In this document: positions 3,701 through 52,900 of the stretch, piece after piece | Layout of the letters: each line of letters opens with the position of its first letter | How positions within the stretch are numbered: position 1 is the first letter of the stretch | NCBI GenBank assembly: GCA_958009085.1 | Contig: OY253678.1 | Location: forward strand, 124,001 to 188,000 | Direction of reading: 5' to 3' | Origin: Protoeuglena noctilucae | Lineage: Eukaryota | DNA length: 64,000 nucleotides | The notes under the pieces: generated by a model | What the model was told of the DNA's origin: nothing | Seen by the model: only the letters and a program-made list of their open reading frames with translations | Database searches by the model: none | Program-made: the position numbers and the translations under genes

Positions 3701-6520
3701 GTGAGATGAGATGACGAGGCGGTCGCGGCGGTTTGCTTTGAGACACCGACTGTGGTGACTCAGCAGCTGCTCCATCACCCTCACATTCACACACCCACAC
3801 TGCTACCCACACCCACACCCACACTCGCCTGACTCAGCAGCTGCCCCATCCCTCTCGCACCCACACACAGGCACACTGACACCCACTCTGACACTCGCCT
3901 GACTCAGCAGCTGCCCCATCCCCCCCGGCAGTGACCCCACCCGCGGCCACGGACCATCCCCGCCCCTCCCCCACTCCACGCACCCACCCTCGCCCTCATC
4001 CCCCATGCCCACACCCACACCCATACCCCCATCCCCACTCCCCCCCACCACCCCTGCACCCTCAACCCCACCCTTGCTTCCCGCACCAACCACTCCCCCA
4101 CCCTCTCCAGCTTCCCCCACACCCCCGCTACTCACACCCCCACCCACTGCACCCCCACCCTTCCCCCCACCCTCACTCACACCCCCATTCCCACCCTTCC
4201 CCGCGCCCTTCCCCCCACCCCTCTGCCCCCCCTGCAGCGGCCCAAAGATCGACCCCGCCTTCCCCGCCTTGGCCAAATGGTAGTGACCGATAGCCGATGC
4301 TATGTTTGCAAAGTCAGCGTCCCTCGGTCGCAGCTTCATGGGCAGGGATCCCTGCCTGGCGCGCGTGAGGGTGGAGAGGGCCGATGCCGACAGGGCTGCG
4401 GGAGAGGAGAGAATGTACAGTTAGACCTGTTGTATGAACAGGACGGTCCATGCACATGTGTACAACTGTGCTGTATCCATCACCCGGTCTCATCCCCATC
4501 ACTGACCCACCCAGTACACTATTCCACACACACCACTCACACCCACCCACACCCCATCCAAGACCCCCCACACCCGCACCCCCACACACCCCACACAAAC
4601 ACTCACCCTGGAACGCCCCGTCGTCGAAGCACCGCGCCTTGCTGAGCGCCAGGAGCATCCCCGCCGCCTCTCGGAAGGTGAACCGTCGCGCGCATCTCTC
4701 CGCAGCACGACAGAGCGCGGGGAGGGCATCTTTGGTAGAGGCATCTGCGCCTGTCGCCACGTATGCCCATGTCACGTTGAAGATGGCCTGGGGATCGAGC
4801 GTCGATATGCGGGAGGCCACGGTTGGCCATAGATTGGTCAGAAAGGCGCGGGATGACTCGGGGGACAGGGACCCGTTGGTCTGGGATCGTGCTACGCTCC
4901 ACATCACGATGCCCAGCTCGGCCGGCTTGGTGAGGCGGTCACGGCGGTCCTCGGCGGCGCGGAGGAGGCCTGGGGGGTAGATGGGGGTAACGGTGGTGAT
5001 TAGATGTTGAAAATTAGATGTAAAAACAATTATACTGTTATACTGTTTGCAGTTATAATATGGTTGTGTCCGATTGATTGTGCGGACAGATGCGCACGTG
5101 GGGGGCGAGAGGGAGAAGGGAGGGAGGGCGAAGGACCTGTTCTTCTCTTTGCCACGAACACACAGCGCATCGCAATTAACAGCCACCTAGTATACACCCG
5201 CCCCCTTTTGCTCCTCTCACCCTGCACCAGCTCGGCTGTCCCGTGCCCGACCAGTGCGTGTGCGTACCATGCATTGGCGAGGGCCTGGGTGTCGAGATCA
5301 GAGATGCGAGCCAGCACCAGGTCGCAGCAGGCGGCCAGGCGGGGGTCGGTCTTGATGCGCTGGACGCGGTAGGCGGGCTGGCGGTCGCAGAGCTTGGCCA
5401 CGTGGTAGAAGGCCGTGACTGGGAGGGGGGTGCGGGGGGTGGGATAGGTGAGGTGGGGTGGGAGAGGGGTAAGATGTGACGTAATGTGATGGTTTGGCGA
5501 CGCGGTAGAAGGCCGTGACTGGGAGGGGGGTGAGGAGTGGGGGTTTGATGCGGGGAGTGGTACGTGTGATGTCGGCAGGTGTGGTGGTAGAGGGGTGATG
5601 TGGGAGAGGGTGTAAACCATGAAGGTTTGGCTGTATGGTACAGGGCCATTACGTCATTGCAAGGGGGGTGTCGAGCGAAGAGTCGTGCACACCGTGAGCG
5701 ATGTAACGCTCTGCATTAAGGGACCGGCGGGTTCTGCGCCTGGCGCGCAAGTAGCTAAATGCCCACACCCCGGACTCGAACCACGCACCGGCGTTGACGT
5801 AGCTGAAGGACTCCCCGCGCAGCACCACCAAGTCAAGGATGTCTTCGGGGTCGGTCGCAGCCAGGATGCGGCCGTTGATCGCGATGCACTCGCGCGTGAA
5901 CTCCTTGCGCGCCTCGTCGCGCGGACTCGGCTGCGGGGGAGGGGGCGGGGAAGGGCGTCGCGCGGGGTGATTGTCGAGGTACGTCGCGCATTGGAAGGCA
6001 ATCCGAGGGGGCGCATCGGCGCTGCTGCGCGTCCCGTGCATGGCACCTCGGATTTTGGATCATCTGCTGTCGCCACACGCGCGCCCTGGCCCGCTCCGAA
6101 AAAAGAAAAGAGGCCCGGAGCGTCCGCACGATCCGTCCCCTCCCCGCGCACCGCCCGGGCGGCGAGCGAGGGGCACGCCGGCGCCGCGCCGCGCGCCAGC
6201 CGCCGGAAACGTGCCAGTGACGGACCTGGGCGCAAGAGATGGCGGACCTTGAGGGCTCCACGCGCCGCTTTGCTCGGGAAGCAACGGAGCAGCGAGAACG
6301 CGCAACCGCCCGGCCGCCGCAGGGACTCTCAGCCCCCGAGATCATCGCCCACAAAGCTCGGTATTGTGACCAGTGCCAGGCGTTCGCTCGGGCGGCGAGC
6401 ATCGGAGCGCACGAGCTCTCGCGGACCGATAAGCTCGCGGCTACCCGCTCCGGCCTCACCTGTCACGGAGGCGCCGCTGCGGGCGGTAGCCCTCGTCCCG
6501 CAGCCACCAACATGCCTCAT
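754..6520 (-). CDS. OPR (octotricopeptide repeat)/RAP-domain organellar RNA-binding protein, ~12 exons
   Basis: RAP motif IDIAMPHCMVAIEVDGPLHF...|GRSLLKHRLLRALGWTVVSVPYWEW. Helical repeats include TQALANAWYAHALVGH, PQAIFNVTWAYV, PRYLSNVLWALAV and PQTVGMVAWSYAR|LGH. The Arg/Ala-rich N-terminus from ATG 6520 was inferred through two introns. Confidence 0.85.
2071..2192. repeat. (ATAGTA)n hexanucleotide microsatellite in an intron
   Basis: Near-perfect tandem gtaata/gtcata units. They generate the spurious poly-VI and poly-L ORFs in the track. Confidence 0.95.
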
Positions 6521-7250
6521 GATACCGACGCGGCCGGCCTTCCCCCTCCGGCCGCTCAACCGCTTCTGTGGGGCCCCCCAGCGCCTGTGCGTTGTAGCAA
6601 CCCGCTCCACTCCCCAAATGTGCGGCTTCCCCGCAGGACGCAGCCACCTGCGGCGTCCGCCCTCGTGAATTGCGCGTGTGCAGGCAGCGACCGACCCATC
6701 CCACGCCACCGATCGGTGTCTGACACTGAAACCTCGCTCCAGCGGGCACGATTCGGCTTGCCTGGGATTCGTGGCACTTCGACTTTGACAAACATTGCTC
6801 CTTTGGGTGTCATCGCAGTCGTAGATCTCCACGGGTGCCTGCCGTCGTCTCTGCAGCTCCACAAAGACCTCCGATCGATGCGTGGTTCGAGCACTGGGCG
6901 CTGATCGCCACGACGTTGGTCGCGGAGTGGCACCGAGGCCGAGCCGGGGCGAGACCTGGGCAAGGTGCGAGGCGCTGGTGTGCCCTCGCACTGTTCCAGC
7001 CATCTTCGGAGCGTTTGGGGCTAAGCATGGATCTGCAACAAATCGTGTGTCTGGGTGGACCGGGATCTTCCTGGTTATAGGCCCTAGCGTGTCCGTAGCG
7101 CGACCCCAGGGGACACGCGTCATGTTGCGGGCACGATGCATCGCGCAGTCGGCCTTGCGTCGCGAGGTTGTGCGTGATCCTGGTATCACTCAATTCCTGC
7201 AGTCCGCAGGCCGGGTACCCGGGGCGCTGGTCGCCCGCGCCGTCCAGACA

Positions 7251-8619
7251 ATGGCGCCCGCGACGCTCCACCACGGCGCTCGCTGCCCGCTCCGTGCCGC
7301 GCCCCATCCCTGGCGCCTGCGCGCGGTCCGGCTGCTGGACTCTGTTTCCGACCCGAGGCGTGCCCGGAGGCCGCACTCGCTGCCGCAGGAGTCGAGGAGT
7401 GCGGCGGGGGAGACCCAACAATGGGCGCCCGCGCGCGCCGGGGGCGCGGAGTTCTCCGACACGCCCCGCGCGATCGAGGCGAGTGCAATCGTTTGCTTAC
7501 ATGCGTGCCGGAGCGCGGTCTCTGCGCCGTCGGATCGCGAACGCGCGGAGCTCCCGCACCGCCCCCGCAGTCGCCGAGTGCGAGCACGGGGCCGCCGGAG
7601 CTGTCGCGACAGGTGGAGGAATTGCGAAGGGAGATGACCGAAGTGTCGGCGCTGGTGCGGGAGCAGCAGGAGACGATCCGGAGGCTTCGGGAGGAGCTCG
7701 GTGTTGCGCGAAGGGGAGGCGAAAGCGAAAACAGCGATGCAGCTTCGCCTTCTGACGACGCGCCGGCCACGCAGCGCCGGACGCTGTTCTGGCGCCCGGA
7801 TCAGCACGCCGCGCACGGGACGGCGGGGTCGCGCGCGAGCGGGGCCGGGCTGTGGACCCCCGGGTCGGTGCCTGGGATGGGCGAGGGGCTGCGGGCGGGG
7901 CCCAGCAGGCGAGTTGCTGGTGTTGGTGTTATGTGTATGTGTGTGGGCGATACTGACTTGAGAATCGATGACACAGTAGGGTCAGAGAGCATGTCAGAGT
8001 GCATGCGACTGCAGTTGCACAGTGGAACGCTAGACCCCTCACCCACTCCCCCCAGCCCCCTCCCCGACCCCTCCTCGGACCCCACGGACCACCGCGGCAG
8101 TCTCCTGGAGACGCAAGCGCGTTTGGCATATTACGACCGTCGGCTGGTGGGGTCCTTCGACGCAAGATTCCACTCGGCGTCGTGGGGCGCCACTCCCAAG
8201 GATTTCCGGATATTGCCCGCCCGCATTATTCTGGTCAGGCACGCGCAGTCGGAGGGGAACATCGACAACGCCGCCTACGCCAGCATACCGGACAACAAGA
8301 TCCCCATCACGGGTGAGTTGGGTGGGCGTGGGGGTGAATATGGTTGTGAGGGATGAACTACCCGTTTCACCCAGGCATGTTCAACTTAAGTTGTAAGTAA
8401 TTCTACTTGAATCCGCTTGCAGAGTTGGGTCGCCAGCAGGCGATGCAGGCGGGGGCGGAGATACGGGAGGAGCTGGACCGGCTGTATGGCGGGGAGGACT
8501 ACAAGGCGAGTTGTTAAAAGAGAATGGTGATAGTGATAGTAACATCGTTAGATGTCGTGACTTGTGTTGCAAAAAGATGGTGAGTGGTAAAGTGGTTATG
8601 CCGCTTGTTCATAAACAAA

Positions 8620-8674
<55 letters not shown>

Positions 8675-9895
8675 CCCTCTCTCCCACCCCCAGGTCTTCT
8701 TCTACACCTCCCCCTACCCCCCTACCGCCGCTCCTTTCAAACGTACAAGGCGATGGCGATGCTGGACGCCTTCCGGGACGACCAGGTCGCGGGGTGGCAG
8801 GAGGAGGTGCAGCTCAGGGAGCAGGACTTCGGGAACTTCCAGGACCCGGAGGTGAGTATGACTATGACTATTTGACTATGATGTCCACTACACAGGGTGA
8901 CTATAATGTGCAACAACTACTTGCATTTCACAATATAACTGTGTAACTAGTAGTAACCACATGGATCTGACCCATCCATTCATTACTGCTTCCACGTTCT
9001 CAATCCCCCGTCGTTGTTACACAGGGCAAGCAGCGGGAGAAGGCCGAGCGCCTGCGCTTCGGCCGCTTCTTTTACCGCTTCCCGAACGGCGAGTCCGGGG
9101 CCGACGTCTACGACCGCATCACTTCTTTCCAAAACACGATGGTCCGCGACATCAACGCGGGGCGATTCTCCAGCAACTGCTCGCTGGTGCTCGTCATGCA
9201 CGGACTGGCGCTCAGGGTGTTTTTGATGAGCTGGTTTCATTGGACGGGTGAGGGGGCACTAATAATAAGTAATAATGTATTAAGCATAGTCATGTGCATG
9301 TCTCACTCCACGAATAGGCGGACACCTGGGCTGCCTCCTGCGTAGGCCGCTCCCATGGAACGTCTGAGAGGGGCGAATGGACAATATGATGTGTGTATAA
9401 TATGGGCCGTTCACATGACTATTCACGGTATTCATTTTGTACAGATTGGGAACAGTGTTCACGTTATAGTCATTATAATTATTATAGTGAGCATTATTGT
9501 GTAGAACAATAACATGGTAAAATATCGACAACTATCATCATTGTTATCAACTCTTCGTCTACCTCCTCCCCCTCCTCTCCCATCCCCCCAGTCGACCAGT
9601 TCCTTCGCGTCTACAACCCCTCCAACGCCACACCCGTCATGCTGGACCGCAATTACTACGGGTGGGACCTCACGCCCCAGGGCACGTCCTGGATCCACAC
9701 CAAGGCCCTTTACACCATGTCCAAGAAGTCGAGGGAACGAGTCAAGGGAATAACGGACGACATGTGCTTCTGCAACTACCTCCCGGGCAACCCCAGCAAC
9801 TGGCACTGATGGCGTGTGGCGATGCCAATACTGATATGGGCACTCATGCTGGTACTGATGCCAATACGGATGGCTGGTATTGGTGCTGGCATTGA
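7251..9895 (+). CDS. Histidine phosphatase / phosphoglycerate mutase-like protein (AT74H/DET1-like) with an apparent frameshift at 8718-8725
   Basis: RIILVRHAQSEGN, VFFYTSPY, LREQDFGNFQD, FGRFFYRFPNGESGADVYDR and LVMHGLALRVFLMSWFHW are spread over spliced exons. The N-terminus resembles a transit peptide. TGTAA at 10076. Confidence 0.85.
8622..8670. repeat. (CA)n microsatellite just upstream of an acceptor
   Basis: About 24 perfect AC units in intron 8506-8693. Confidence 0.95.
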
Positions 9896-10075
9896 TGGTA
9901 TCTGGCACTGATTGCTGCCACTGAGGTGCTACTTGGTACGGGGACACTGGCGGGGTATTTCGAATGTTGGGGCGAGGCGGCGTGAACGAGGCAGGCAGGG
10001 TCGGGGTACAGCGTTGATGGGTAGTTATTGAGTAGCATTGGGATGCCTTTTTTTAGGATTGCTCAACTGTCTGTT

Positions 10076-10194
10076 TGTAATTGTTGAAGAGAGGGACGCG
10101 TCCATTTGGCGAGCGACATTGGTCGTTGCACTTCCAACAGCTGTTATTAATCGTCGCAATCGGGACTGTCGTTAACTGCGATGTGTCCTTTACA
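10076..10194. promoter_or_regulatory. Convergent chlorophyte TGTAA polyadenylation signals
   Basis: TGTAA on + at 10076-10080 after the phosphatase gene, and on - at 10190-10194 after ARSA1. Similar elements lie at ~571 (+), 24318 (-), 33865 (-) and 53168 (+). Confidence 0.6.
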
Positions 10195-10496
10195 ATTTTC
10201 TTTGCACGCCGTTCAAGGCTTGCGGCCGCATCAAATCTACCATGCACCGATGCACAAGGGCGCGTGTTCTGACACAACGCGCGTGTGATGGTGCTGTGGC
10301 TGCCTGCGCTATACCCCACCAACAATTGCATTCCATCTAACGCCCCTTAGCTGAACCTTCCCATTCCCAGTGCACTCCCCACTCCACCACTCCACCACTG
10401 GCCCCCCCCTCCCTCACACTCCACGCTCCCCGCATCCCTTCACCAAACCCCACACCACCCCTCCCCCGCACCCCCCCCCCCCCCCTCAATCCAAGC

Positions 10497-13400
10497 TCAT
10501 TTCGAGTCCCACACCACCATTCCGAAGTACTGCAGCCCCGCCACCCCCCTCACTTCCATGTCGATGAGGGGCGCCGTGATCTGCTGCAGCCGCCGCATGT
10601 CGGGGTCGGTGCGGAACATCTCGAAAGCACGGTCCTGGTCGCGGCGCTGGGGACGGGGGGAAGGAGAGGGGAGAGTAGTAATAATGAGTTGTGGTAAATA
10701 ACAGTGATAAATAACAGTACTACTGTTATTCACTAGAGGTGCTTTAGAACTGCTTATCTGTGAACCTGACCCCCCTTTGCTCTCTCCATTCCATTCCCTT
10801 ATCATCCCTTGACAGGCAAACATGCGGCTCTGGCGTAAGCATGTGGGTGATGTGGTGGTGTGGCCAGGCATACAGCTCTGGCGTGCGGGCATACCAACCC
10901 AGCACACAGCAGTAACTCCCGCGCACACGCATGTGGGTAGGCGTTGCGATGGAGCCGACGCGGTATTAGGAGGGTATGGACGCATGTGAAAGCCAAATGC
11001 CTGCCTAACACCGCCCCATCACCCACATACCAGCCATCCCCCATCACCCCAACACCACCACCCCTCAACCTCACATCCACATAACACCCATCCCCACCAA
11101 ACCCCCCCCCCTTCCCCCCCAACCCCCCCTCACCCTCATTTCCACGTACTTGTCCGCGGCATCGACCGGCACTTTCTGATTCACCACCAGCCTCTTGACA
11201 GGCACGCCCTCCTTGCCCAACGCCACGCACAGCCGCCTCGACTCGGCCACTGCCATCGCAGTGGGGATGGTGACGATCACGAACTCGGTTGCAGCACGAT
11301 CGCGGAACATGCGGCGGGCCTGGTCCATTCGGGACTGCAAACGTTCCAAAGATGCCAAGGCGCTCTCGGCCGCCTCGCGGGCCGCGGCGTCGCGGTTCGA
11401 ATCCTGGGAGCGGCCGGTCTGCATCTGGGGGGAAAAGGGTGGTGGTGGTTTGAATCCCAAGGGTGGCAGTTTTGTCCGCAGCACTGCCATCATGCACATC
11501 CCCCTTACCAGGTTCCCCAGCACCCCGCTGATCGATCCCCAATCACTGTCACTATTACCACGACTGTGTCCACTAAGCATCTCACCAGGTTCCCCAGCAC
11601 CCCGCTGATGCCCGCGGTGGCGTCCAGGATCCTCTTCCGCAGCCTCACGACCTTGCCCACGGACTTGTCGAGGAAGTCGGGGAGAGAGAGCAGGCGCAGG
11701 GTGTGGCCGGTGGGGGCCGTGTCGAACACGATGCGCTGCAAGGGAGGGGAGAAAGGGTGGGTGTGGAGTTGGTCGAAGGAGGCCATGGTTATCAGAGTGT
11801 TGTATTGTATTATGTGCATGAGATGGGTATGTGTGGAGGGTGTGGCCGGTGGGGGCGGTGTCGAACACCATGCGATGGGGTGGGTGGAGGGGGGGGGGAG
11901 GTGTGGGGTTGGTTATAACAACAGTGCGTGGGGTGGGTCTGTGTGGTGGGTGTGGTGAAGCTGTTAACAGACACGATGCAACACTGCTCACACATGGCCA
12001 CCACACCATGTAATGGCAACACTGACTGACTAACCATCAACACCAATCACCTTGAAGTGAGCGTACTCCGGATCTCTCAGGAACTGCACCACTTTGGAGA
12101 TGGCCACCGCCTCGTCCACCCCCGGGGGCGCAGAGTCCAGCAATTCCCCCAGTCGCAGATCCCTCAGCTGCTCCGCCACCCCGCCCATGCCCAGGCCCGA
12201 CAACGCGTCCTCGAAGGCCTGAGGGAGGGATTGAGGGTGAGGAGTAGTTACAGAAATTAGATATAGTTAACAGATATTCAGCACATGACAGGGCGCCCTC
12301 AAAGGCGTGGGGGGAGTGGGGGATAGGTAACATGGCCGTCGTTATAATCATGAGACATGGGGGAATGTGAGACCGTTATTAAGAGACCAGTCGATGTCGA
12401 TATCATTTCCAGAAGATAAGGAAAAGCTGACATGGCTATAATCATCACATGCCCCCCATCCACCATCCTCGCCTTGGTGTCGCTCTTGGCGGCCAGGTCC
12501 CTCAGCTCCTTGCGCGCCTGCTCGACGTCCACCTGTGCGTGGATCAAGAGAATTATATTGATAACAAAGAGATGAGCGAGACGGACATGGACAGCAATGC
12601 AGCCACCCCACAATGCACCAACACCAACACCCCACCCCCGCATTAACATCCCACCCCACCCCCATCCATTCCCACCCACCTGCATCCCCCAGAGCGGCAG
12701 TTCGATCCCCGGGAAGTCCACCCTCACGGGTAAACCCCCGCTTACATCGTAATCCAAACAGTCCGACAGAGAGTGGGCGGGGTCGGTGGACACGATCAGC
12801 GTGGGGTAGCCGTCCGACGCCAGTTTCACCGCCAGTGAGGCGGACAGGCTCGTCTTGCCCACGCCGCCCTTGCCGCCAAACATGAAGAATTTGCGCCCTT
12901 CTGACAGGTCACGCGAGAGGGCGATGCTGGTGGCGGTGGTGGCGGTGGATGTGGATGCGCCATTGGTGGAGGGAGTGGATGGCTGCTGCGACATTTCGGT
13001 GTAGCCGCTGTCCGCGTTCCACACTTTGGCGCCGAACCACTGCAAAGGGGGGTGAGGGAGATGGGGCCGATGGGATGGAGCGTATGGGGGTAACATGCAA
13101 GTCAGGCGGTAAATGTCTGCGACAGGTGAGAGAGTGCGGATGAATGAAATAGGACAGCTATGCATCTCGCCTGCAGCGCGGTTATCCCCCTGACTTCGAT
13201 CCGCAACACAGTACCACGATACCCTCGTCACGTCATGCCCATTCCCATCAGCAGTATATAACTTGTTTGTAACTCGCCTGCAGCGCGGGTATGCCCCTGA
13301 CCTCCACGTCCACCCGGTCCACATCCACGCGCCTCAGCTGCCCCAGTGCGGGGTCGCTCTCAATGGCAGCCATGGCCCTGGCCTGGTCTTTGAGCTTGGC

Positions 13401-15301
13401 AGCGATGAAGGTGGGGACATTGGAGGGGCGCAGGACCTGGGGTTGGGGGGGAGGTGGGGGGTCGAGAGGGAGTGGGTGGGGTGGTAATGGGTGAGCACGG
13501 GTGGGTGGTGGGGGGCGATGGGAGAGTGGGGTTGAGAGGGAATGGGTGGGAGGGTAAGCGAGAGCGGGGCTGGAGTGGGTGTCATGGGAACAGGTGCGTC
13601 TGGCAGCATTCATGATTATGCGCTTGCAGGGGATGCCTCTTCACATCTACAAGCCCTTTACCTGGTTGATGATCATGCGCTTGCACGGGATGCCCTCCTT
13701 CCGCAGTTCCCTCAGCAGCCTCCCCGACTCGGTGGCCGCCAGCACCGTGGGGATCGTGGCAATGACGAACTCGGTCGAGGACTCGTCGCGGAACAGGGAC
13801 GCGACCTGGGGGGAGAGACGCGAAATGGCATTTAATAACACTGGTTACCAAGGCAATAACCTGGACAGTGAATTGGAAGGGCACAACGGCAGGGCATTCA
13901 CACATATGCCTCCTGGCTACAAGCACCTCGCAGGTAGTTTCGCATCGACCTGTCCTACTTACTCAACTCCCCTCCCTCGCCCCGTCTCTCACCTGCGCCA
14001 CGCTGGCCCGGGCACCCTCCATCTGATCCACAGCGCGGTCGAGCGCCTCCGCCCCTCGGCCGAACATGACCCGCACGAACGACCCCGCGCCCGCGACCTT
14101 GCGCCGCAGCCGGCTGATCTTCTCAATGCTGCGGTCCAGGAAGTCGGGCAGCGACAGCAGGCGCAGCGTGTGCCCTGCAGGGGCAAGGGGCAGGAGAGAA
14201 GGTGCAGTCGCAGTTACGTTGCGTGGCGACGCGGAGGAGCCGCTGCGCTCGGATGCAGTGAGAGTTTGCAACATCATTCCGCTGCATCGAGATGCCGCTG
14301 CGATCGGGCGGACCCTCTGCAGAGGAGTGGCCTCGCCAGCTGCGCCGCACGCACCGGTGGGCGCCGTGTCGAAGATGATGCGCGTGAACTTGGCGTACTC
14401 CTCGGAGTTGACGAATTGGACCACTTTCGAGATGGCGATCGCCTCGTCGAGGCCCGGGGGCGGCGTGTCTAAGAGCTCTCCCAGCTTGAGGTCCGTCAGC
14501 TGCTCCAAAACGCCACGCAGGCCCACCTGCGACGTCCAGTCCTCCACCTGCAGGTTGATGAGCATAGGAAAAAGAGGTCCGCGAAGCGGCAGCGCCTGAG
14601 GCCGCGCGCGGGCCCGCACGCAAGCAGTTTTCTTAAGTTGCACAACACCCATCGCCCCTCTCCGCGCCGCCCTCGCCTTCTGCTGCGTCTCCTCCTTCTC
14701 CCATTCCCTCCGCAGCTCCTCCTTGGCCTGCTCCGGGTCGATCTCCATGCCCCACAGCGGCAGGGACGTGCCCTCGACTGGGACCGGCCGGCCCCCGCTC
14801 AAATCCTGCTCCAGCGAGTCGCCCAGCGAGTGCGCGGGGTCCGTGGAGACCACCAGGACCGTGTGGCCCTCCATCGCGAGGCGGACGCCCAGCGAAGCCG
14901 CGAGCGACGTCTTGCCCACGCCCCCCTTGCCCGACACCATGATGTACTTGCGCGCCGTGCCGCGCGAGAGCTCCTCGAGCACCGATTCCCCCGTCGCGGC
15001 CGACGAGATCTCCGCTGCGCGACACACCAGCGCCCGGTTCGGGGCGCGCGCGCGACGCGGGAGGGGCGCGGACCGGCACCCAGGTCCCTCGGGCGCCGTG
15101 GGCCCCGCGCGGGGCCGGGCGGCCGCAGCTCGCGCGCGCGGATGTCGCAGGGGGGCGTTACGCGCGAGAGGCCCCGCTTGCAACGCCGTCCTGCACGCAG
15201 ATAGGGGTAAAGGGCCATCTCGCTGCGGCTACCATTTGCACGTCCTAGCGCGCGCGCCTCGCTGCCCATGAATGGCTCGACGGCATCGCCAGCAAGCGCA
15301 T
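10497..15301 (-). CDS. ARSA1: Two-domain ArsA/GET3-family ATPase, plastid-type (ARSA1-like)
   Basis: Two complete ATPase domains, each with [41 protein letters not shown] and V(I)TIPT. They are joined in frame by [14 protein letters not shown]. The transit-like N-terminus ([19 protein letters not shown]) was inferred through a short intron at 15191-15257. Confidence 0.88.
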
Positions 15302-15908
15302 AAGCCAAGAGACATCCGACGCGGCGCCGGATCCGGGGAGCGGTCTTTCGAGCGCGCGCGATGCGAGGTCGTGGCGTGAGACGATGTTTTGAGGCCATGC
15401 GGGACCCCGACCAGCTCGGGCGGGACGGAGCGTGCTTTGCAGCAAAATTGAAATCGTCCCTCAGGCGTGGATGACTGTTAAGGCGCGAATCCTCGCCTGT
15501 GGTGGAAGCATGCACTTGGTGGCGACAGGATCGCCATGGCTTCGCGTGCGGTGGCCGGCTGCCCCGACAGGGACGAGATGGGAAGTGCCAGCCATCGCAA
15601 AAGGCTCGTTCGGCTCAACGGCGGGGCTCGCAACCTCCCTCTGGCGACAGACGCTGCGGCACAGCGTCGTCCTGCCAGCTGCCCAGCAGTCGATTCGATT
15701 CTGGGGTCGGTGGCAGGGAGCTGGAACATTGGATGTCCTGAACCCCAATCCTTGTCTTGGATTTTTAATCACCGTGTCCGTATTTACGGAATGCACGACC
15801 TAGTGCTGCTAACATCTAGTTCTATCGCCACGAGACTCGACGAGAGTCACGAGTCCCGACCTTGCATGCATACGGCGACAAGCCCCCCCACACTCCCCCG
15901 TGCTGTCA

Positions 15909-18900
15909 TCAAATGAGGAACCGGTCGTCGATGAGGGCCGCCTTGCTGAGCCGCGCCTGCCCGAGCTTGGCGCGCACGAGCCGCAGCACGCTGGTGACGA
16001 TCCACACGATGGCTGCCGACAGGGCGGGTCGCCTCAATGAGACATCGAGTGCCACCAGGATCATGCACTCCCACACGCACAGCGTCATGTCGCAACCGTA
16101 AAAGGTCAAGTCCTGCGAAGGGACAAGGGGTATGTAGCCCGTTCACTCTCCTCTCTTATACTCTCTTATCTAGCAGCTCGGGACCCCGCAGCACGTCCGG
16201 CCACATCACGTGTTCGCGTCGCACAGCACGTTCCCCATGGCCATCCAGCCACCCCAGCTCGTTCACGATTACTCGCCATGAAGGAGTCTCGGAAGTCGTA
16301 GACGAAGAGCGGCGACTGGTTGCCGAGTCGCAGCGCGGGCGGCAGCCGCAGGAGGTAGTCGAGGAAGTTCTTGCGCACGACGCGGTCGGCGCGGTTGTTG
16401 TTGGTGACGTCGGAGACGACGCGGCGAAGGAGGTAAGAGATCTAAGAATGGGGAGTGAGGAGGGGTGGGGGTGTTGGAGTGGGGTTGGGAGCACTGGTGA
16501 GCAACAGTGCAATTCGATTTCAGCACATGCCACCACACTCACACGGCCCACAGTAACACTCACATACACCCCCCACCCCCACTTTCTCACCTGCCTCTGT
16601 GCCTCGGAGGGCGACAGTCCCACAGTCACACCCCCACACACACACCCATTTCAACTCGCCTGTAACACACTCACACACACCCCATTCCAACTCCCTCACC
16701 TGCCTCTGTGCCTCGGAGGGCGAGAGTCCCACGGCGGCGGTGGGCAGCCCGGCGCACGATTGGGAGTCGCGCCCCTGCCTCTCCATGGACAGGTTGCCCA
16801 GCATCACGAGTTCCGCGTATTTGGTGGCTGGGGGGGAGAGGGAGAGGGGAGGGGTGTTGGACAGATTGCAGGCATGAGAAATGATAAGCACGAAAAAATA
16901 ATGTGCACGTTTGGGGCTATCATTAAACAATGCAACATGGTTACCAACATACTCACCGCTGGCGATGTCCAGGCACACCTCACTAGATGGCTGCCATCAC
17001 ACAAAGCAATTGTCGCTACACATCCACTCACCGCTGGCGATGTCCAGGTACACCTCGAATGTCTGGCAGTCCTTGGTCTTGTCGTCCGCCGTGTCCCCGA
17101 TCAAGCCACGCCCGCCCACCACGGCGCCTGGGGGCGATGGGGAGGAAAGATGGGCGTCAGTATGTTTTCAGATGATTCAACTACTCGTCATCACTGTCAT
17201 CATTGTTGACACACCATCTCGTTCTGAATATTTATATCAAATACTACACACAAACACTACACAGCTCACCCGCCTCCTTGTGCAGCTGGTCCTGCAGCTC
17301 TTGCAGGGACGTGTCGGCTGAGGTGATGGACGACCGGCCGTGGATGTAGTAGCCGAATTCGGCGGACTCGGCGGACTCGAACATGAACACCGACAGGTTG
17401 GCTGCGAGGGAGAGAAGATGAGAGGGATTTGTATATTCAAATATTGACACAGACAGCTAACTCGGCGGACTCAAACATGAACACCGACAGGTTCGCTGGG
17501 AGTTGAGGGGAGAGGGATTTGAACATATTTGAACACATGTTATCACCTATATTATACATGGAAACAAAGACACTCTAGCCACACAAGTCACGCAAACACA
17601 TGACATTTGCACAGCCCGTCTCACCCATGTAGCACAGGTCGACGAACGCCCCCGGGGGATTGGACACGAATCGGTCGTAGACGCTGAGCCGTATCAGAAA
17701 CTGGGCGATGACAGATGCGTAGAACACCAACACGATCAGTCCGGCGCGGATGAGGATGGAATCGACTTTCCACGGGGCGCTGGAGAGGTCTTTTTCTAAG
17801 GGAGTGGATGCGGACTCGTACTGCCACCTGATGGGTGGGGTGGGGGATGGGTGGGTGTAAGAGATGCGTGTCAGAATGTATGTTGGGAAGGGGGGATGGG
17901 GAGGGTTGGTTTTGATACAGCTCATGCCATCCACGCACCTGAGCAATTCCATGGCAATGGTGATGACTATTGTTACTGTCTCTACCACTGCCACTGCCAC
18001 TACCACAATCATCACTTTCACTCACTTGAACCCCTCCATGGCGACGATGATGACCACGAGCGTGGCCTCCGGGCTGCTGTACCTGGATGACGCCAGCTCG
18101 GACCATTCGTTGGCGATGAGCAGCGTGCGCCAGCAGGAGGTGGGGGCCAGGCCCTCCTTGGCGGAGCCGGGGACCAGGATCTTGCTGAGTGTAGAGAAGA
18201 GTGAAAGAGTGCTGATATGTTGATTATAGGCGATAGCAGCGCAAGTGAGAAGGACGTAGGTGGTTAGAGATAGCAGCACTGGCATCATGGGTTAAGGGGG
18301 TAAGATGAGGATGATAATGACACAATTTCCATGTGCCGCAATGTCAACACATTTCTATTGCACTACACAGCACCCTCCTCCCCTCACCGCGGCCTCTCCC
18401 AGTCGACGAAAGAGATGCCATACTGCGATTGATCGATGAGCAGCCCCATCATGGCGAAGGACTTGCCGGCAGCGGCGGCGATGACGGCGGCCAGGAAGGG
18501 GCGGGCCTCGTGGTCGGAGGGGAGGAGCTGGGAGGGGTGGGGGAGTGAGAGTGGGGGGGAATGTGAGTGTGAGTGAGGGTGAGGGTGAGGGTGAGGATGA
18601 GATTGAGAGTGAGGGTGAGGGTGAGAGTGGGGGTGAGGGTGAGTGAGAGTGGGGGTGGCAGCGAGGGTGGCAGTAGTGAGGGTGAGCCATACAAGCGATA
18701 CTGTGCAGCATGATAGCAGCCAACCCACTCGCCTGGAAGGTGGCTTGCTGCAGCTTGAACACGATGAGCCAGTAGACGCCCGTGATGACCACCACGACAA
18801 ACAGCGCGTCCGCCACGGCGTCGCAGATCCTCGCCATGGCTTTGATCAGCGATAGGAAGCTCAGGGGGACACTGGCGCGGCGACTGTGAGGGTGGCAGTG

Positions 18901-21900
18901 GGGTGGTGTTGAGGGTGGCAGTGGGGGTGGTGTTGAGGGTGGCAGTGGGGGTGGCGGTGGGGGTGAGGACGAGGGCAGGCAGTGGATAAGTCCATTGGTC
19001 GCTGCTTAGCCATAGCCATAACCGCAGCCACGTGCTCTCTCTTAACCACCATCGCACGCAACTCACCGATTCACTCTTAAAAAGAACCTGAGCAGCGCCA
19101 GTGCCCCGATGACGGACGTGAACACGATGACCATGATGCGGAAGGCGCGCCAGAAACCCTGGGTGCCGGCCCAGCGGGCGGTGAAGGACGAGGGGCTGGA
19201 CACGCCAGTGGCTGCGGGGTGAGGGAGAGAGGGGAGAGATGGTGAGGATGCGTTGTTGTTGGAAACAGGGTAAGCATCGACTGGCCCAATGTTGCATGAT
19301 TCAAGCAATTAGCAGTCCACGACACGCATCTCCCACCCCCCTTCCACCACGTCGCACCGATGGGGCTCCGGGAGGCGTAGGTGAGCTCCAGGACCGGCGG
19401 GAGGATGCGTGAGTGGTCGTCGGGGCGGATGGCGACGGTGATGCGGGCCTTGGAGATGTAACGCAGGGCCTGGAGGGTCCCGGTGGCGTCGACACCGCTC
19501 GAGGCGTCAATCGTGAAGAACCGGCGGGTGAGGCTCGCTGTCGTGAGGTCCTGGCTGCGATGGGAGGGGTGAAGGAAGAGGAGGGTTAAAGGAAGACAGG
19601 AACTGTGGATTGGCGAGGCGGGGAGAGGGGGGCGGCGGCTCAGGGCTTTCGTGCTGTAAGGAACGTGCCATGCTGGGCGCAACGTGCTGCAGCACTCCCG
19701 CCGCGAAAGAGATGGTCCCCGCGCATCCCATGCTCGTCCATGGTAATGAAAATCTCTAATTGAACGCCACCCGTTGCTACTCGCTCATCTCCCCGCCCCC
19801 ACCCGCCCCCCCACGTGCTCCCTCACTTGTCATACGTGACATTTGCCCCGTTGACCAGCGCCCCATTGTCGCGCTGCGAGTGGTTGACGACAGGGACCGG
19901 GTACAATCTCCCTGTGCCATCCTCGATGTACATTTCGTAGAAGGTGACGCCGCCCCGGTCGGACGCCAACTGAAGGAGGGCGTCGATGGGCAGGCGGCAC
20001 GACAGCTGCGGGGGTGGGGGGGAAGGGGGTGGGGTGAGGGGAGGAATTTAAAACGAAAGAGTCGGTGGTATATCGGTGGTTAGTTGCATTACACCACAAC
20101 TTGTGGTGTATTGCAACTTCTCGCGGCACAGCGCATGAGTCGAGATGGGCAGCGAGACTAAAATGTGAGCATGGCGTGCACTGCGCAACCAAACCACATT
20201 CACAGGTACAATAATCAATTCCCACCTTGTATCCTATCCCCACGGTGGTCCACCCGATGGCCTGGGCCGTGCCGCTGCTGCAGAGCTGCAGTTGGTCGGT
20301 CAGGTCCGCCAGTCCCAGCCAGGTGCCGTCCAGCGACCAGGACGCCAGTTTGAATCGAAGGACGGATGTGGGGGAGCCCGTGGGGACCTGGGGGGGGTGG
20401 GTGAGTGGAGATGCGGTGACAACATGGGTGGGGATGCGATGGATGCGTTTGTGAGAGTGATGGGAAGCAGCAAGCTGAAACGGCAAGCAAGGTTGCGCTG
20501 GGGGCCGATGGATGCTAAGAGTGATGGGATAGGTGGATAGTAGATTACTATCTCTCCTCATCTCTCACCTGCCCTGCCCTGCCCCCCCAGCGACAGCCGC
20601 AGCTGCACATCTACTGACATACAATCAGATACCAGAACCACAACAGTGTTAATTACGACCAATCATCACCTGCGCGTTCTTGCCCTGGCTCCCCAGCGAC
20701 AGCCGCAGCTGCACGTCGGTGTTTCGCAGCGCCGCCGCCGTCTGCAGGCTGCTGTAGGCGATCCAGGGGGTGTAGAGGGGCCATGTAAAGTTGAAGTTCG
20801 AGTCCGCGTGGTATGAGTCGCTTCCCCGGGAGTTGAAGATGCGCTGGTAGAGAAGGCACGCAACGCCGCGCGTGAAGTCAAAGTCCTGGGGAAAGGATGG
20901 GGTGGGGTGGGTGGTATGATCAGAGTTCATGTCAAACAGGGTTGCTAATGATAGTGACGCGTAAGCGTGTCCATGCAAGCACAGAGCCATAGCATCGCCA
21001 GCTTGCATCCCACCCACTCCACTCTCACCTGCAGCACGCATGCGTTGGCGAGCGCGTTGCACGCCTTCACGTCCGCCCTCTCCCAGCACAGCCGCGCCGA
21101 CTGCCCCAGGGAGTCGCTGAAAGCCTTGGAGACCACCACGGTGGCGTCAGACGTGCTCCCGGACGACGTCGGCACGTTGTAGAACGTGACTTGGAAGGCC
21201 GAACTGTCGGTGCGGCCCACGCCGAGTTCAGAAACGACGGTGGCCAGGTCGGACTGGGGGTGGAGGGGAGCTCAGGAAGTGTGGGTGGGTGAGAGTGGGT
21301 GAGTGGGTGAAACAGAGCCATTGGGTGCGAGAGTGGGAGCCAGTGAGAGCAAGTGACAGGGCGACATGGCGAACGAATGGAAAGTGGGCGCCTGTCCCCA
21401 TCCCTCGTGTCATGTCCAGTCCTATCGTCTCTTCTGACATCTCTTCTGACGACTGTCACTCACGTTGTTGTAGCACGTGGCCCCCGCGGGCACCGTGGCC
21501 GGGCACACGCACGCCCCCCCCGACGCGACCTTGGGGTACTCGCAGGGCACGCAGCTGCCGTTGGAGAGGATCGAATTGGACGCCGAGCAGGGGACGCAGC
21601 GGGCCAGGTACTGCGGGGGGTGCGGGGGTGGAGGGGGTTGTGGGAAGAGCGAGGGGTGTGTAAAGGGGGTGGCTTGAAGGAGGGCGTGTGGTGGAGGCGA
21701 GAATGGGAGCGACAGTGGGGAAAGCATCGCAAAGAGCGATGCCTCAGCTCCACGCCTGTGCTCCTGCCATTCGCAAAGGACTCGAACCCGCGCCCACCTG
21801 GCCGGACACCAGGAGGGGCACGCCCGTGGCGTCCGTCTCGACCACCTGGCCGCCCCCGTTTGCGCAGACGCACGACGACCCGTCCGGCACCACCGTCGCG

Positions 21901-24290: not shown

Positions 24291-24494
24291 ATTCGGCGCA
24301 GCATGCAGATGGTTGTGTTACATCACGTTAGATACCTTTGCTCGATGCACGTGGAGATCGCTTGCTGGCACATTGCGTGGATTTGAAGGGTTGACGCGTG
24401 CTGTGATCCAAGCAGCACGAGTTGGCAAGACGAGCTTGCAGAGTGGGTCACAGGCGCGCTTTCGCTTCAATTCACCGAATGATGCGACGCATGT

Positions 24495-29270: not shown

Positions 29271-33442
<4,172 letters not shown>

Positions 33443-43832: not shown

Positions 43833-43999
43833 TGCCCCGTTGCCATCCCGGCGTGGTCTCTCGGCCGACCCTGCGGCCCGGGTGTGAATAATCTCGTGTC
43901 GGGACTCGCGAGCAGGGCGTTGCGCCCGTGCGACACCTTTCATTGCTGAAAAACGACGCGAAGGAGTGTGAATCAGGCTGTCGCGGTCCGAGAGGACGG

Positions 44000-46900: not shown

Positions 46901-49900
46901 TTCGCAGGCACGGAACGCGGTCGCAGGGGAGGGCGGGGTGGAGGGCGGCGATGGGGGCGCGCCCTCGTTGCGGCGGCGGAGCCTGTCGCAGCCCAAAGAG
47001 AGCCAGGGGGACGGGAGAGAGGAAGGTGAGGGTGCGGGGCGTGTTTATGCGCGAGGGAGGGGCTGAGCACTGCGGGGTGTTGGTGATGACAGGGGGGTGT
47101 GGGCGTGGTTAGCTTGAGTGCAAGATGGTGTCTTTGATGGAAACATAGATGGGTATCAACAGAAGTACCGACATCATGGATTCCTCTTCTCCTCTCAGGC
47201 ACAGCATTCACACGAGAGGCCACGGCCCCAGCCAACAACGGTCGCAGTCGCCTGGGCACCATGTCCCGCCACAGCACCGCCGAGGCACCCCGGGCAGAGA
47301 CCAGAGACGGTGAGGGATGGGCAGAGAGCAGGGACGGCGAGGGATGGTAGAGAGCATGGGTGGTGAGCTGCAAACATACTGGGACAAGGGATGCCAGCCA
47401 ACACTTGTTCCTCGACTCGACAAACCCTAATCCACCCGTACAAGCCCTTTCCTAACCAGCCCGCCGCCGACAAGCACCCCCCCCACCCCTTCCCCCCCAG
47501 CCCGCCAGTCCATGCGCCGCTCCACGGAGGCCCGCCTCGCCAACCGCGGATCCATTGACAGCGTCAGCACCACCGCCAACACCGCACCGGGCGCCGCGTC
47601 CAAGAACTCGTCCCTCGGGCGGCAGGGGGCGAGCGACACGGGGGACGAGGCCGCCCCCAGGCACGCTTCCCTGGGCAGGGCTGGCCCTTCTGCAGCCGCC
47701 GCAGCCACAGCCACAGCCGCGGCCCGCCCCGTCCCATCCACCACGTCGCTGGGGTGCGGGCCCATGGCAGCCCCGGGCCCCGACCGCGGGCGGCTGCCAT
47801 CGCTGCCCGAGGACCCCACATTGCAAGACGCTGCGAATGCAGCCGCACCCGCGCGGCTGGCGGGGGTGCGGGAGGAGGAGGGCCTGGAGAGCTCTCACCC
47901 GAGCCAGTCGGCAGCTGAGGAATTTTCGAAAGAAAAGTACCCCAAGGTGTCGGCGTTTGAGGGCGGGGGCGGGGAGGTGACGGGGTACGACGGCGAGGGG
48001 GGCGGGGGACTGTTCAAGGAGAGGGGCGGGAGCGGGGGCAGGAGCCCGTTCGCGAGCAGCCGTGATGCGCGATTGTCCAAGCCCTCCCGCCTGCGGGCCA
48101 AGTCGGGGGGGGACGGGGCGGACGGTGCGCCGGAGCCGGCGTTTGGCGAAGACAGCTTCCGGTGAGGGTGCTTGCGGGGTGGGTGTGGTGCTAATTTTGG
48201 GCCCTCCTTGCGCAGTTGTCTCCATCCCCATTCCATACCATCTCCCTGCTCCACTCCCCCAGTCGCACTTCGCAAGAGCCCTCGCCCGTCTCGGCCTTCA
48301 AGGCCAACGCCAAGGCCTCCCGGGCATCCCGCGCCTCCATCAGTGACAAACTCACGGGGTTCTTCCACCGCAAGAGCCAACACCTGACGAACACGGAGGC
48401 CAACCGGGGATCAAGAGTGTCCCAGGACTCGGGGGGGCCCACGAGCCCCACGGCCAAGGCGGGGAGACGGAGGTCCATCGGGGTGAGGGGACGACTGTAA
48501 CTGATGACTGCGCCGTGTTGCATATCGCATGTGTTTGGATGCGAACAATGAGCTCTTGGTAGGACAGCCGTTGCTGTTAAGGGAAGGTGTGACCGGTGTG
48601 ATATGATCCCCCATGCTGTGACCCAACTGCAGGCGTTTGGCGCAGCGCTGCGGAAGGAGGACGTCAACATGTCTCTGGATGCCCTGCGACGCACCGCGCA
48701 TGACCCCCTCTACTGGGAACTGGCGAGGCCCTTCTACCGCATCGCACACCGGTCGTACCCGGCCCTGTCGATGGTGAGGGATCCATGATGGCGTACTGCT
48801 CTTGCTTACTACATATTTCTGCCTGGCTGGCTTGCTGTTGCTCAGTAGCAACTCCTGACTGATGGGCTGTCAGTCACAATCGCCTCTATCTTGGTCTCGA
48901 AGTCGCAATCCCATGCAGGAGCCCTGCGCGCTGCTTGCTTGTGACTCTCTTACTGCCAATGATTGCCACTACTTACACCCGCGTCCCTTCTCACCTCACA
49001 GGAGCCCAGCGTGCACGCGGGGGTCTTCCGCACCTGGTCCCTCTCCCAGTCCCCCCGGCCGGGGTTCGAGGTGCTCCACGCCATCAACGTGTTGAGGAAC
49101 GAGCTCGTGGTCGTCAAGCTGTTCAACATCAGGCTCATGAACGACGCGGCCGTGAAGGGGGTGGCGCAGGAGGTGCTGGTCAGGCGAGTGACGTCGGGGA
49201 TGCATGCAGAGCCGATGCCAGATATGTCCATATTCGTGATATGTGACTGTACCATGTATCAGATATCAAGCAGGCGACTCGCCACCTGTGCACTGGTGAC
49301 TCCTGCCATCCGCTGTTGCTTGTCGCATGCACTGTTTTGGCAAGGCGATGCCTCGATCAACACCCAACGCCCAGACACGACGCACATCCTCACATCCCCA
49401 CATCCTCACACCCTCACATCTTCACCCACCCCGTCCCACTTTTGTGCTTCCAGGGAGACGCTGTACCACCGCGGCCTGGATCCCTACGTGGGCACCTTCG
49501 TGCACGGGTCGGTGATTGGCGTGGTGACGCGCGCCAGCACAGCGGGGGACTTCCTGCGACACGCAGTCATGGACACTCCCTTAGGTCGCATGGATGAGAA
49601 CTCGGTGGTTGCCAGGGTGCTGCTGCCCGTCATGATGGCCCTGCAGCACATGCACGCGCGGGGGCTGGTGCACCGGAACGTGAGGCCCGAGTATGTCGTG
49701 GAGGGGGTGTCGGGGGTGGCGAGATTAGGGGGTCTGCAGCACGTGGCCAGGGCGGACGAGAGACCCAGCAGCCCCATCGGGCCACTGGACTACATGGCAC
49801 CGGAGATGATACTGGTGAGCATAAATGGTTGGTGGCATTATTGATTGCAAGCAGTGGATCGGCTTAGTGGGCCACTGGACTACATGGCACCGGAGATGTG

Positions 49901-52900
49901 ACTGGTGAGGACAAGTGGTTGGTTGTATGATTGATTGCAAGCAGTGGATCGTCTCAGTGATGATGCTGGTGAGCGTGGCAGGTTATCTTAATGCCTTGCT
50001 GTGGGAAACTCACATCTGACGGTCTCTGGTATCAACACCGACTTTCAAACGCTCTCACCTTCACTTCCTGTCCCCTTTCTTCCGCAGTGTTCGTATGCCA
50101 AGCAGCGCCGGAGCCACGCGCACCACGCCGCCAAGCGCGCCCCCTCCGCTCGTCTTGCCTCGTTCCGCATCCCATCCCTGCGCAAGCGCCGCAACGCGAG
50201 CTTCAAAGCAGACGACCCCTCGGCTGCCAACGAGGGCGCGCCTGGGCCCATGCGGCTGCTGTCGGGGATCGTGAGGCGCCTGTCGCAGCGCATGTCCGCC
50301 AAGGGACCAGCACTGGACGACTCGCAGGGGTGAGTGGGGTTGGGGATGGAGGGGTGGCAGGGTTGATGGATGGGTGATCACAGTGGTGGTAAAGGGATGA
50401 CGGTATTGATGGAGTGGTGGCTGCAGTGACGAGGGGTGGCAGTAATGAAAATGTCTCCAACGTGCATTTCTAAATCTCCTTCACGCTGCCCCCCCTTCTC
50501 AGGGACGGTGGTGCCGGTACGCTCGTGACGCGCCTGTCCGGCATCTTCGGCCTCAACCAAGACCGCCGCTCTTCCCACGACCGTCGGAGGTCGCATGAGA
50601 GTCGCGAGGGGGGTGGTGGGGCGCGGCAGTCCTTGGACATGGCCGTGAGGAGAAACACGGCGTCGCAGGAGACGGTGGGGGATGGGGATAAGAAGGTGAG
50701 GGAGACAGCAAAGGATTGTTACTCTGAGGCTAAACGCAAGAAAACAAGACGCACAAATATCAACTTTGACCTTCGTACCCCCAAACACGCTCGCTCACCT
50801 CCCCATCCCCACAGCGCCCGAGTGCCGAGCGCCCCACGGCAGCCCTGGCCCCTCACCCGCACCGCCCCAGCGCCGAGCGTCGCAGCATGGAGGACATGGG
50901 CCCGCGTCCCCACCGCCACTCCCACGGGCAGTCAAATACGAACCCCGTGGACCCATCCCTGCTCCTCGCCAACCTGGCCCCTTCGCACCCCGGCGCGCCG
51001 CTGCCACCCAAGGCACCCAAGGCGGATTTCAAAAATGGCCCAAGCGCTGGTCAGGATTCGAACGGAGCGGACGCAAGAGAAGGAGCGGCGGCGGTGGCGG
51101 TGGTGGCGGCGGGGCGTACGCGGATCAGCTTTGGCAATGGCGAAGAGCACGTGGGAAGGGAGGCGGGGGCGTTGGAGGGCGAGGGGGTGCCCCTGCAGGC
51201 GGCGGTGAGCGCGGGGGGTGGCGCGGTGACTGGGGTGCGGCCCAAGAGCGCGGTGGGCGAGGGGCGTGGCCAGGGAATGGGTTCGAGTCCCATGGAGGCT
51301 CCCAGGCGCACGGCCAAGTCCGTTCGTATCGGCGATGATGCGATGGAGGCCACCGACCCAGAAATGGGAAGGGTGCATGGAGATGTCGCGGCTACGGGTG
51401 CGGATGGGGCGGGGGAGGGGCGCCGCGTGCGGATGGTGGAGGTGGCGGCGGCGCCGGAAAAGGCAGGGGGTTTGCGCGAAGGTGAGTGGGAGAGAGAGCG
51501 GGTGGTGCGGTGTGCAGAATCGTACAGACTGGTAAGGCTGTGTGATGGTAAGTGGCGGAGAGTGTGGGAGTTTGGGGTGCGATGGTAGCCTTGTTCATCC
51601 CCATTCTACCCATCTCGTCGCTCCCCCGCAGCCGCCAAGGTAGTCTCCAAGTCCCGGCAGTACTCTCGCAAGGCCTCGGTGGCGGCCTCGTTCCGCAAGC
51701 GCGGCACGAACGGCATGGGGCTGATCAAGAGCATGTTTCACGGGGGCGGGCGTCGTGGTGGGGATGGCCAAGATTCTGACAAGGAGGGCGACGTGGAGGA
51801 GGGAGAGGGGGAGGAGGACGAGGAGGACTACTACGAAGAGTGAGGGTGGATGGATAAGGGTGGATAAGTGTGGATGCGAGTGTATGGGGATGGGTGTGGA
51901 TGGGACGGCATGGGAGTGTAGTGCATGGTAGTGTGGCTGTTCCTGTCCAGCACAACTGGTACCATAAGTATAAGTAGACAGTGCATTACGTTGACCATTG
52001 CGCACAGTACGTGTGACATGCTCGACCCTTTCCGTGCCTCTGCCCCTCACAGTGACGCCCCCGGTGGCCCCGCCCCCCGCGTCCCCGACCTGTGGTATTC
52101 CGACAAAGTGGACACGTGGTCCCTGGGGTGCCTGGCATTCGAGTTGCTCTGCGGCAAGTGTCCCTTTGAGGTCGAGGACGCCACGCAGGCCGCCGGGCTC
52201 ATTCTGTTCGGGGAGATCAGCCAGGTAAGATGGATTGCATGCTGTTCAAGGAGATCAGATTAGTGCGGTGGGACATGTGGTGGTCGCATGCTGAGTGCTG
52301 AGATCAACCAGGTGATTGGCTGTCACTGACGTAGTTACGCTCGCACACTCGCATGGCAGTGGCACTCTGAACTACAATCGCATCCTCTATATCTCCCCCA
52401 CATATGCAGTTCCCCGATTACATCTCTCCCGAGGCCGCCGACTTCATCCGCCAGGCCCTGGCCAAGTCTCCCGACGCGCGCCCCACCGTCACGGACCTCC
52501 TCTCCCACCCTCTCATGACGGTGCACACGGCCAAGGCAAGGGAGGTGTGGAAGCTGGAAGAACTAATTGAACAGCAGGTGGCGAGGGACGCGGCGAACCA
52601 GGGGCCCGGGATGGGGCTGGGTCCCGGGGGCACGCTACCGGTGGGGCCGGCGGGGGTGAGGGCGTCGATGGACGGTGGGGCGGGGAGCTCCGATGAGGAG
52701 GGGCAGGCGGGGTTCCGGCTGCCGTGGAGGAATCGGGGGAAGAGGGCATTCGAGGTGGGTGTGGGGTGGGTAGCAGGGAAGTGAGAGGGGTGATGTGCGC
52801 GGGGACGGGGGCGGGTGGATGGGATGGGGTCCGTCCCCATCTCCCTCTTTGACCCGTCTCATGCCTACTTGGGGATCTGTTGGGTCCCTCTGGTATGTGC

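Follow-up and report, generated by a model that had tools for sequence, protein, structure and literature searches.

The window analysed here, a 64-kilobase (kb) stretch of DNA from Protoeuglena noctilucae (GenBank assembly GCA_958009085.1, contig OY253678.1, positions 124,001 to 188,000), is eukaryotic sequence with a guanine–cytosine (GC) content of 55–75% and numerous short introns, and in it the ends of exons recur as local direct copies, here called echoes, inside the adjacent introns. An RNA-verified exon has its best protein matches among green-algal ARSA1/GET3 proteins (Pedinophyceae, Chlamydomonas, and Scenedesmus; 55–76%), which places the source among the marine chlorophytes; an initial suspicion of the haptophyte Emiliania, prompted by GC donors, was dropped on this ground. 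Pfam matches in the window identified Meckelin (TMEM67), ketol-acid reductoisomerase (KARI_N and KARI_C), and a protein kinase (Pkinase). The Meckelin exon returned 0 matches when used as a search query, and this gene hence has no outside gene model. A further gene had been labelled RAP in an earlier sequence-only reading of the window; a Pfam match was absent in the 7 segments tested, and the label is not confirmed. All sampled words of the window were present in four DNA runs labelled with one organism, and its exons were found without differing letters in RNA contigs of three marine metatranscriptome runs.

These RNA contigs fixed seven ARSA1 introns of 147–487 nucleotides (nt), the borders of which coincided exactly with the sources of five ARSA1 echoes. 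Two of the seven (12219–12472 and 13040–13277) have GC donors instead of GT, and the KARI intron beyond ~31074 also appears to start with a GC donor. Outside ARSA1, exon borders were based on coding potential, reading frame, and Pfam matches, the window-wide exon map being a self-trained codon-usage (coding-potential) map; the mean intron length in the window was 250 nt. On the coding strand, intron composition was polar, with a G/T-rich 5′ part carrying G-runs and a C-rich 3′ part (e.g. 11425–11585, 11736–12050, and 13437–13661). This composition, rich in simple repeats, may drive a fast turnover by insertions and deletions (indels).

Echoes of exon ends within their own introns

The sequence-only reading had described copies of 15–40 nt of exon ends in at least 14 introns, and all 16 listed pairs (14 introns) were found at their coordinates. 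Two of them were weak (12199/12287, 20/27 identical; 52213/52300, 13/14), and for 3821/3891 an exon border was not established. An unbiased scan for direct repeats along every diagonal, at offsets of 30–400 and a score of at least 14, recovered 13 pairs altogether: 3821/3891, 5404/5504, 11507/11584, 11701/11840, 13166/13273, 13614/13671, 16586/16695, 16951/17026, 17367/17461, 20586/20692, 32311/32382, 32382/32473, and 49779/49869. The scan added two pairs, both in KARI (31452/31496 and 31009/31118). It detected 111 local direct repeats in the window, compared with 2, 2, and 2 in three block-shuffled copies; the 111 fell into 31 groups, 13 of which paired the edge of a coding-like segment with a noncoding copy. 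The clustering of spacings at 70–110 nt held for 11 of the 15 listed spacings, and the full range was 44–139 nt when the added events were included.

We then compared the terminal 45 nt at each of 208 exon-like borders with the noncoding sequence flanking that border (at most 300 nt), together with four controls, as follows.

Direct copy, own flank: 14/208 at a score of at least 14; 24/208 at a score of at least 11
Inverted copy, own flank: 0/208 at a score of at least 14
Direct copy, flank of another border: 0/208 at a score of at least 14
Exon-interior window 60–105 nt in: 0/108 at a score of at least 14
Exon-interior window 35–80 nt in: 1/180 at a score of at least 14

The comparison proposed in the sequence-only reading, of splice-site windows with their own intron, was thus borne out in this window (14 of 208, against 0–1 in the controls; Fisher p = 0.003, 0.001, and 1e-4). 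The copies are direct, local, and anchored at exon ends, and both donors and acceptors are echoed. Arbitrary intronic sequence, with which junctions were also to be compared, had a local copy in 5 of 235 high-complexity windows, and four of these five were themselves junction events. The echoes are real and far above chance. A search of metagenome contigs for relatives yielded two short contigs of other algae (76–77% GC) without an echo-like repeat, one 41-nt pair at offset 39 being present, and a third match that is a probable bacterial locus.

The features in ARSA1 are listed below. Flank homology denotes resemblance of the spacer between the two copies to the sequence that borders the echo on its distal, intronic side, as a tandem duplication predicts.

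11507..11532, minus strand: donor echo of the ARSA1 exon end 11586–11609 plus GT; 26/26 identical; without flank homology; intron 11425–11585 by RNA
11837..11877, minus strand: acceptor echo of the ARSA1 exon start 11698–11735; AG changed to AT; flank homology weak and indel-interrupted
12287..12313, minus strand: weak acceptor echo of the exon start 12199–12218; AG changed to AC; 20/27 identical
13166..13194, minus strand: donor echo of the exon end 13278–13301; 27/29 identical; GC donor motif intact; without flank homology; GC..AG intron 13040–13277 by RNA
13605..13637, minus strand: donor echo of the exon end 13662–13694; splice site decayed; 26/33 identical

Five of the seven RNA-verified ARSA1 introns held a copy of one of their own borders. 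The acceptor echo at 11837–11868 is matched by one metatranscriptome contig, which then continues into unrelated coding-like sequence. We considered its end at 11868 as use of the echo site and rejected this, since the continuation reads as another ArsA/GET3-type transcript with a common conserved motif; the contig probably represents a transcript of an ArsA/GET3 paralogue with the same conserved nucleotide-binding motif.

The features in the other genes were as follows.

3756..3924, minus strand: tandem repeat with a unit of 70–74 nt and ~2.4 copies, two of them with a donor-like GC motif; exon border not established
5394..5432, minus strand: real acceptor junction of the exon at ~5195–5418 (by reading frame), source of the echo at 5494–5532; 39 nt at 95%, offset 100
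5494..5532, minus strand: acceptor echo in the intron, CAG retained; flank homology of the spacer 5433–5493, z=3.9 and z=2.8
16553..16623, minus strand: donor echo of 16662–16732 in Meckelin/TMEM67; 33 nt of exon and 38 nt of intron; flank homology z=3.2 and z=4.1
16951..16981, minus strand: donor echo of 17026–17056; six-base donor motif intact; 30/31 identical; flank p=0.025 and p=0.007
17460..17502, minus strand: acceptor echo of 17366–17408; CAG retained; flank homology z=4.8 and z=3.5
20575..20611, minus strand: echo of 20681–20717; source end 11 nt short of the donor by reading frame
31118..31137, plus strand: copy of KARI exon-interior sequence 31009–31028; 20/20 identical; 44 nt into the next intron; without flank homology; makes a donor-like motif
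31496..31522, plus strand: donor echo of 31452–31478 in KARI; offset 44
32308..32417, plus strand: two successive acceptor echoes (32308–32346 and 32379–32417) of the KARI exon start 32473–32508; CAG in both; KARI_C
49779..49958, plus strand: complete 90-nt tandem duplication at the kinase donor 49814/49815; 36 nt of exon and 54 nt of intron; z=23.7; Pkinase
52300..52313, plus strand: weak donor echo of 52213–52226; score 12

The repeat at 3756–3924, which covers the listed pair 3821/3891, had an RNA depth below 1 and no coding potential, and the DNA contigs break there. Judged by the reading frame, the echo at 20575–20611 appears to be missing ~10 nt beside its donor. The source at 31009 lies in the exon interior, 46 nt upstream of the GC donor of KARI, and three copies stand at a single junction at 52213–52313.

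Probable tandem duplications and the predicted fate of the inner copies

The pairs have the form of a junction-spanning tandem duplication, the origin proposed in the sequence-only reading: two direct copies with an offset equal to the unit length. Homology between spacer and flank on the predicted side was found for 7 of 16 pairs (p<=0.035) and on the other side for 0 of 16, in partial accordance with that origin; under a different scoring scheme, the result held for six pairs. Flank homology was absent for 11507, 12199, 13166, 13612, 31009, and 52213. An ungapped reading, in which no flank homology is seen, was set aside as misleading; gapped tests recover homology in about half of the pairs. 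At 49779/49869, the entire 90-nt unit is duplicated at 89% identity with both donors intact. In KARI, the spacers of the two successive acceptor echoes are homologous to each other (z=3.2), and the locus has undergone two rounds of duplication.

An origin from mobile elements was also considered. When 15 spacers were searched with blastn-short against the window, 14 matched only themselves and the 15th (3756) matched only simple-repeat tracts. Because the spacers are unique in the window, no mobile-element family was seen there, and a mobile-element or introner origin was rejected.

We consider it probable that the echoes arose by junction-spanning tandem duplications that were tolerated since the inner copy is spliced out, so that introns were lengthened and decoys left behind. 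They would be relics of short local duplications of 44–139 nt, by replication slippage or end-joining repair, in which the unit straddled an exon–intron junction and thereby yielded two copies of the exon edge and its splice site. A correct mRNA would come only from the copy that adjoins the rest of the exon. The other copy would be removed together with the intron, and the duplication would thus be tolerated, would lengthen the intron, and would leave a decaying decoy. Duplications entirely within exons would be lost to selection, and those entirely within introns would quickly fade because the native intron sequence (G/T-rich at the 5′ end and C-rich at the 3′ end) turns over fast by indels. 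The sequence-only reading had gone further, to the building of introns and intron gain. Every echo, however, lies within an intron that has its own ends, which points to lengthening by 44–139 nt and not to the birth of an intron.

The echoes had also been regarded as sites usable for alternative or recursive splicing, and this found no support. At all seven ARSA1 introns, the only ones with RNA evidence, the RNA contigs of the three runs showed outer sites only; two ARSA1 donor echoes have a site that is still intact, and neither was seen used in these contigs. None of 13 tested uses of an echo site gave an in-frame, stop-free product (eight frameshifts; five in frame with at least one stop), and because none keeps the frame open, alternative protein isoforms are not supported. 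Recursive splicing calls for juxtaposed acceptor and donor motifs in a long intron, whereas each echo carries a single kind of site and the RNA-defined introns are short.

The decay of the echoes is consistent with neutral decoys. Differences between echo and exon numbered 7, 10, and 19 at codon positions 1, 2, and 3 (over 137, 137, and 132 sites), and the echo lineage was ~6% diverged, compared with ~8% implied for synonymous sites. This divergence near the synonymous rate, as estimated from the sequence, argues against conservation or conversion of the echoes. The splice dinucleotide was retained in ~13 of 17 echoes and lost in four, about as expected under neutrality for such a divergence.

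Weighing a junction-specific process

We ran a simulation in which neutral duplications fell uniformly over the introns of the window. Because these introns average only 250 nt, a raw excess of junction events is expected under such a process: the simulated ratio of detectable junction-spanning to intron-only duplications was 1.6–2.5, and we observed ~13–14 versus 3–6. A process targeted at junctions is therefore not supported by the raw excess, which requires no targeting, although the short exon part of the copies leaves some filter or bias in place. This could be a filter against duplications that include more than ~40 nt of exon.

Several observations weigh against tolerated tandem duplication. 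The copied exon part was 12–38 nt in 13 of 15 events regardless of unit length (the exceptions being 20575, with ~44 nt including the gap, and 31009, with its interior source). An exon breakpoint falling anywhere within the unit is not what the events show: the exon share was at most 0.4 in 12 of 13 events, as against 29–37% of simulated ones (binomial estimate, p ~3e-5), and the simulated mean share was 0.52–0.56. When events carrying over 40 nt of exon were purged, the expected ratio of junction to intron-only events fell to 0.7–0.8 versus at least 2–4 observed, an excess that could be reconciled only if native intron sequence were lost several times faster than sequence derived from exons. 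Such a faster decay is suggested by the flank homology, which is weak and riddled with indels, and by the two neutral echo copies in KARI, in which native intron sequence has diverged faster and with more indels than exon-derived sequence. Border scores were bimodal (nine at 23–31, none at 16–22, and fifteen at 11–15) and did not form a smooth decay series. The echoes at 11507 (26/26) and 31009 (20/20, interior source) are perfect yet lack flank homology, as does 13166 (27/29), and these three are not explained by a plain tandem unit. Finally, the exon borders beyond ARSA1 depend on a rough coding-potential map, self-trained and with unreliable strand calls; among the ARSA1 exons used for comparison, it misplaced the borders by 3–12 nt in most cases and by 81 nt in one (segment start 12761 versus exon start 12680).

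The short exon part raises the idea that splice junctions are true hotspots of break repair, duplicating a fixed footprint of ~20–40 nt of exon together with a variable intron stretch, the ceiling of ~38 nt being the exon context needed to compete; we regard this as a doubtful extension, under which introns would grow stepwise from their own ends. A junction-linked mutational hotspot seems to us less likely again. Here, breaks or staggered nicks arising preferentially near splice junctions (for instance at G-clusters just past donors, C-runs before acceptors, or R-loop edges) would be repaired by end-joining with fill-in, which duplicates a segment starting 20–40 nt inside the exon. Such a hotspot would account for an exon part that stays nearly constant while the unit varies from 44 to 139 nt, for the excess of short-exon junction events over intron-only ones once long-exon events are excluded, and for recurrence at one junction (the KARI triple and the three copies at 52213–52313), and end-joining-like repair in another marine green alga has produced direct target duplications of 62 and 518 bp with filler of 55–83 bp (PMC8002553). 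Nothing in our data ties DNA breaks to splice sites, however, several echo spacers lack G-runs, and the deficit of intron-only repeats is explicable by faster turnover of native introns. The concentration of 12 of the 14 strong border hits within three genes would suit a hotspot as well, but poorly called borders in the rest of the window may be the reason for it.

Short templated patches, or filler insertions with a target duplication of 20–40 nt, are an unlikely source of the echoes in general and were considered at least for the subset without flank homology. The sharp edges of 11507 and 31009, the similar case of 13166, and the exon-interior source of 31009 speak for them, and theta-type templated insertion may apply to 11507 and 31009. 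Random templated copying nevertheless predicts inverted copies and interior sources, both scarce in the border test (0/208 inverted; 1/180 and 0/108 interior), and the pairs do not show the use of both orientations and arbitrary nearby sources that marks theta-type end-joining. The acceptor-type spacers, moreover, contain CAG and a complete C-rich tract, which copied intron ends should have and random filler should not, and the insert at 31009 would have to include conserved KARI coding sequence. Selection that keeps the echoes as functional decoys or alternative splice sites, for instance in dosage control coupled to nonsense-mediated mRNA decay (NMD) or as splicing enhancers, is more improbable still. 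Several echoes are as close to the consensus as the real site, most retain their dinucleotide, block identity is high next to diverged flanks, and each tested use creates a premature stop, as NMD coupling needs; yet dinucleotide retention is near neutral, four sites are lost, codon positions 1 and 2 change at about the synonymous rate, and the RNA contigs, which drop rare forms, contain outer sites only. An assembly or polishing stutter is hardly credible, even though the repeats are tandem-like and 44–139 nt apart. The copies differ by substitutions, their positions are tied to exon ends, which are invisible to an assembler, and contigs of a DNA run, possibly the source data of the assembly itself, matched 3893–8604 (without gaps) and 8688–18528 (with one gap) without differing letters. 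Because these contigs reproduce the sequence, the echoes in those two stretches are not a stutter of the assembly, as the sequence-only reading had argued from the substitutions.

Related systems and further features of the window

In the RdRp gene of potato, intron gain or sliding has reportedly occurred by tandem duplication across splice signals. Introners, transposon-derived multi-copy families that create whole introns, are a genome-scale source of introns in marine algae; here, by contrast, the spacers are unique in the window and the introns pre-exist. Lehmann et al. 2010 (PMC2891723) describe single cases in which exon sequence with a proto-splice site was duplicated to give a new intron or intron position. 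The echoes resemble these in that a splice signal is doubled by direct duplication nearby and one of the two copies comes to lie within the intron. They differ in that an existing junction is copied and a new intron is not shown, and, set beside such single cases, they are dense (14 of 208 borders; five of the seven introns of one gene).

Direct repeats at intron borders, of 4–30 bp with a mean of 11.4 and pairing the 5′ border with the 3′ border in the manner of a target-site duplication, are reported by Rogers and Bendich 2025 (PMC11782384), who interpret them as break-repair scars. Both sets are direct repeats near splice sites, but the copies described here lie 44–139 nt inside the same intron and not at its far end, and often comprise a whole tandem unit. 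In Ostreococcus tauri (PMC8002553), end-joining-like repair is reported to insert 55–83 bp of filler and to leave direct duplications that are tens to hundreds of bp long. That species is likewise a marine green alga with direct duplications; unlike the echoes, the events there were induced by transformation and had no link to splice junctions, and the lineage is a different one. The general mechanism is thus known from single cases (PMC2891723), and in the limited collection of literature searched we found no description of junction echoes in algae at such density.

If this density holds genome-wide, it would represent intron growth in action, in steps of 44–139 nt, by the copying of an intron's own borders. 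Each event is in effect a natural experiment in splice-site choice: in ARSA1, sites that are intact, with their full intron-side context and up to 38 nt of exon, are left unused in the RNA contigs. Both aspects bear on how introns expand and on how short introns are defined, and the decoys are a pitfall for gene finding in algal genomes rich in GC.

Several other features of the window were observed. Within the kinase domain, ~2.2 kb (49815–52060) with coding-like stretches inside (50097–51840) separate Pfam Pkinase position 167 from position 174; an exceptionally long intron, a large insertion into a loop, or a nested gene could account for this interruption. A coding repeat with a 21-nt period at 36844–37152 (minus strand) specifies a glycine-rich G-G-D-R-Y-like repeat protein, and a repeat with a 99-nt (33-residue) period at 40886–41121, within a 1.9-kb open frame, looks ankyrin-like by its period. 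An AT-rich island amid the GC-rich DNA contains a perfect hexamer microsatellite of 19.5 copies (2074–2190). The summed contig depth of the DNA run reached 3426 at 3001–3634 and 808 at 18851–19484, compared with ~70–170 in most other bins; both are simple C/A- or G/T-rich tracts that recur across the genome. At 61331–61656, a repeat with a period of 138–141 nt (69-nt sub-period) extends across a coding-like/noncoding border and may be either a duplication with a long exon part or a protein repeat.

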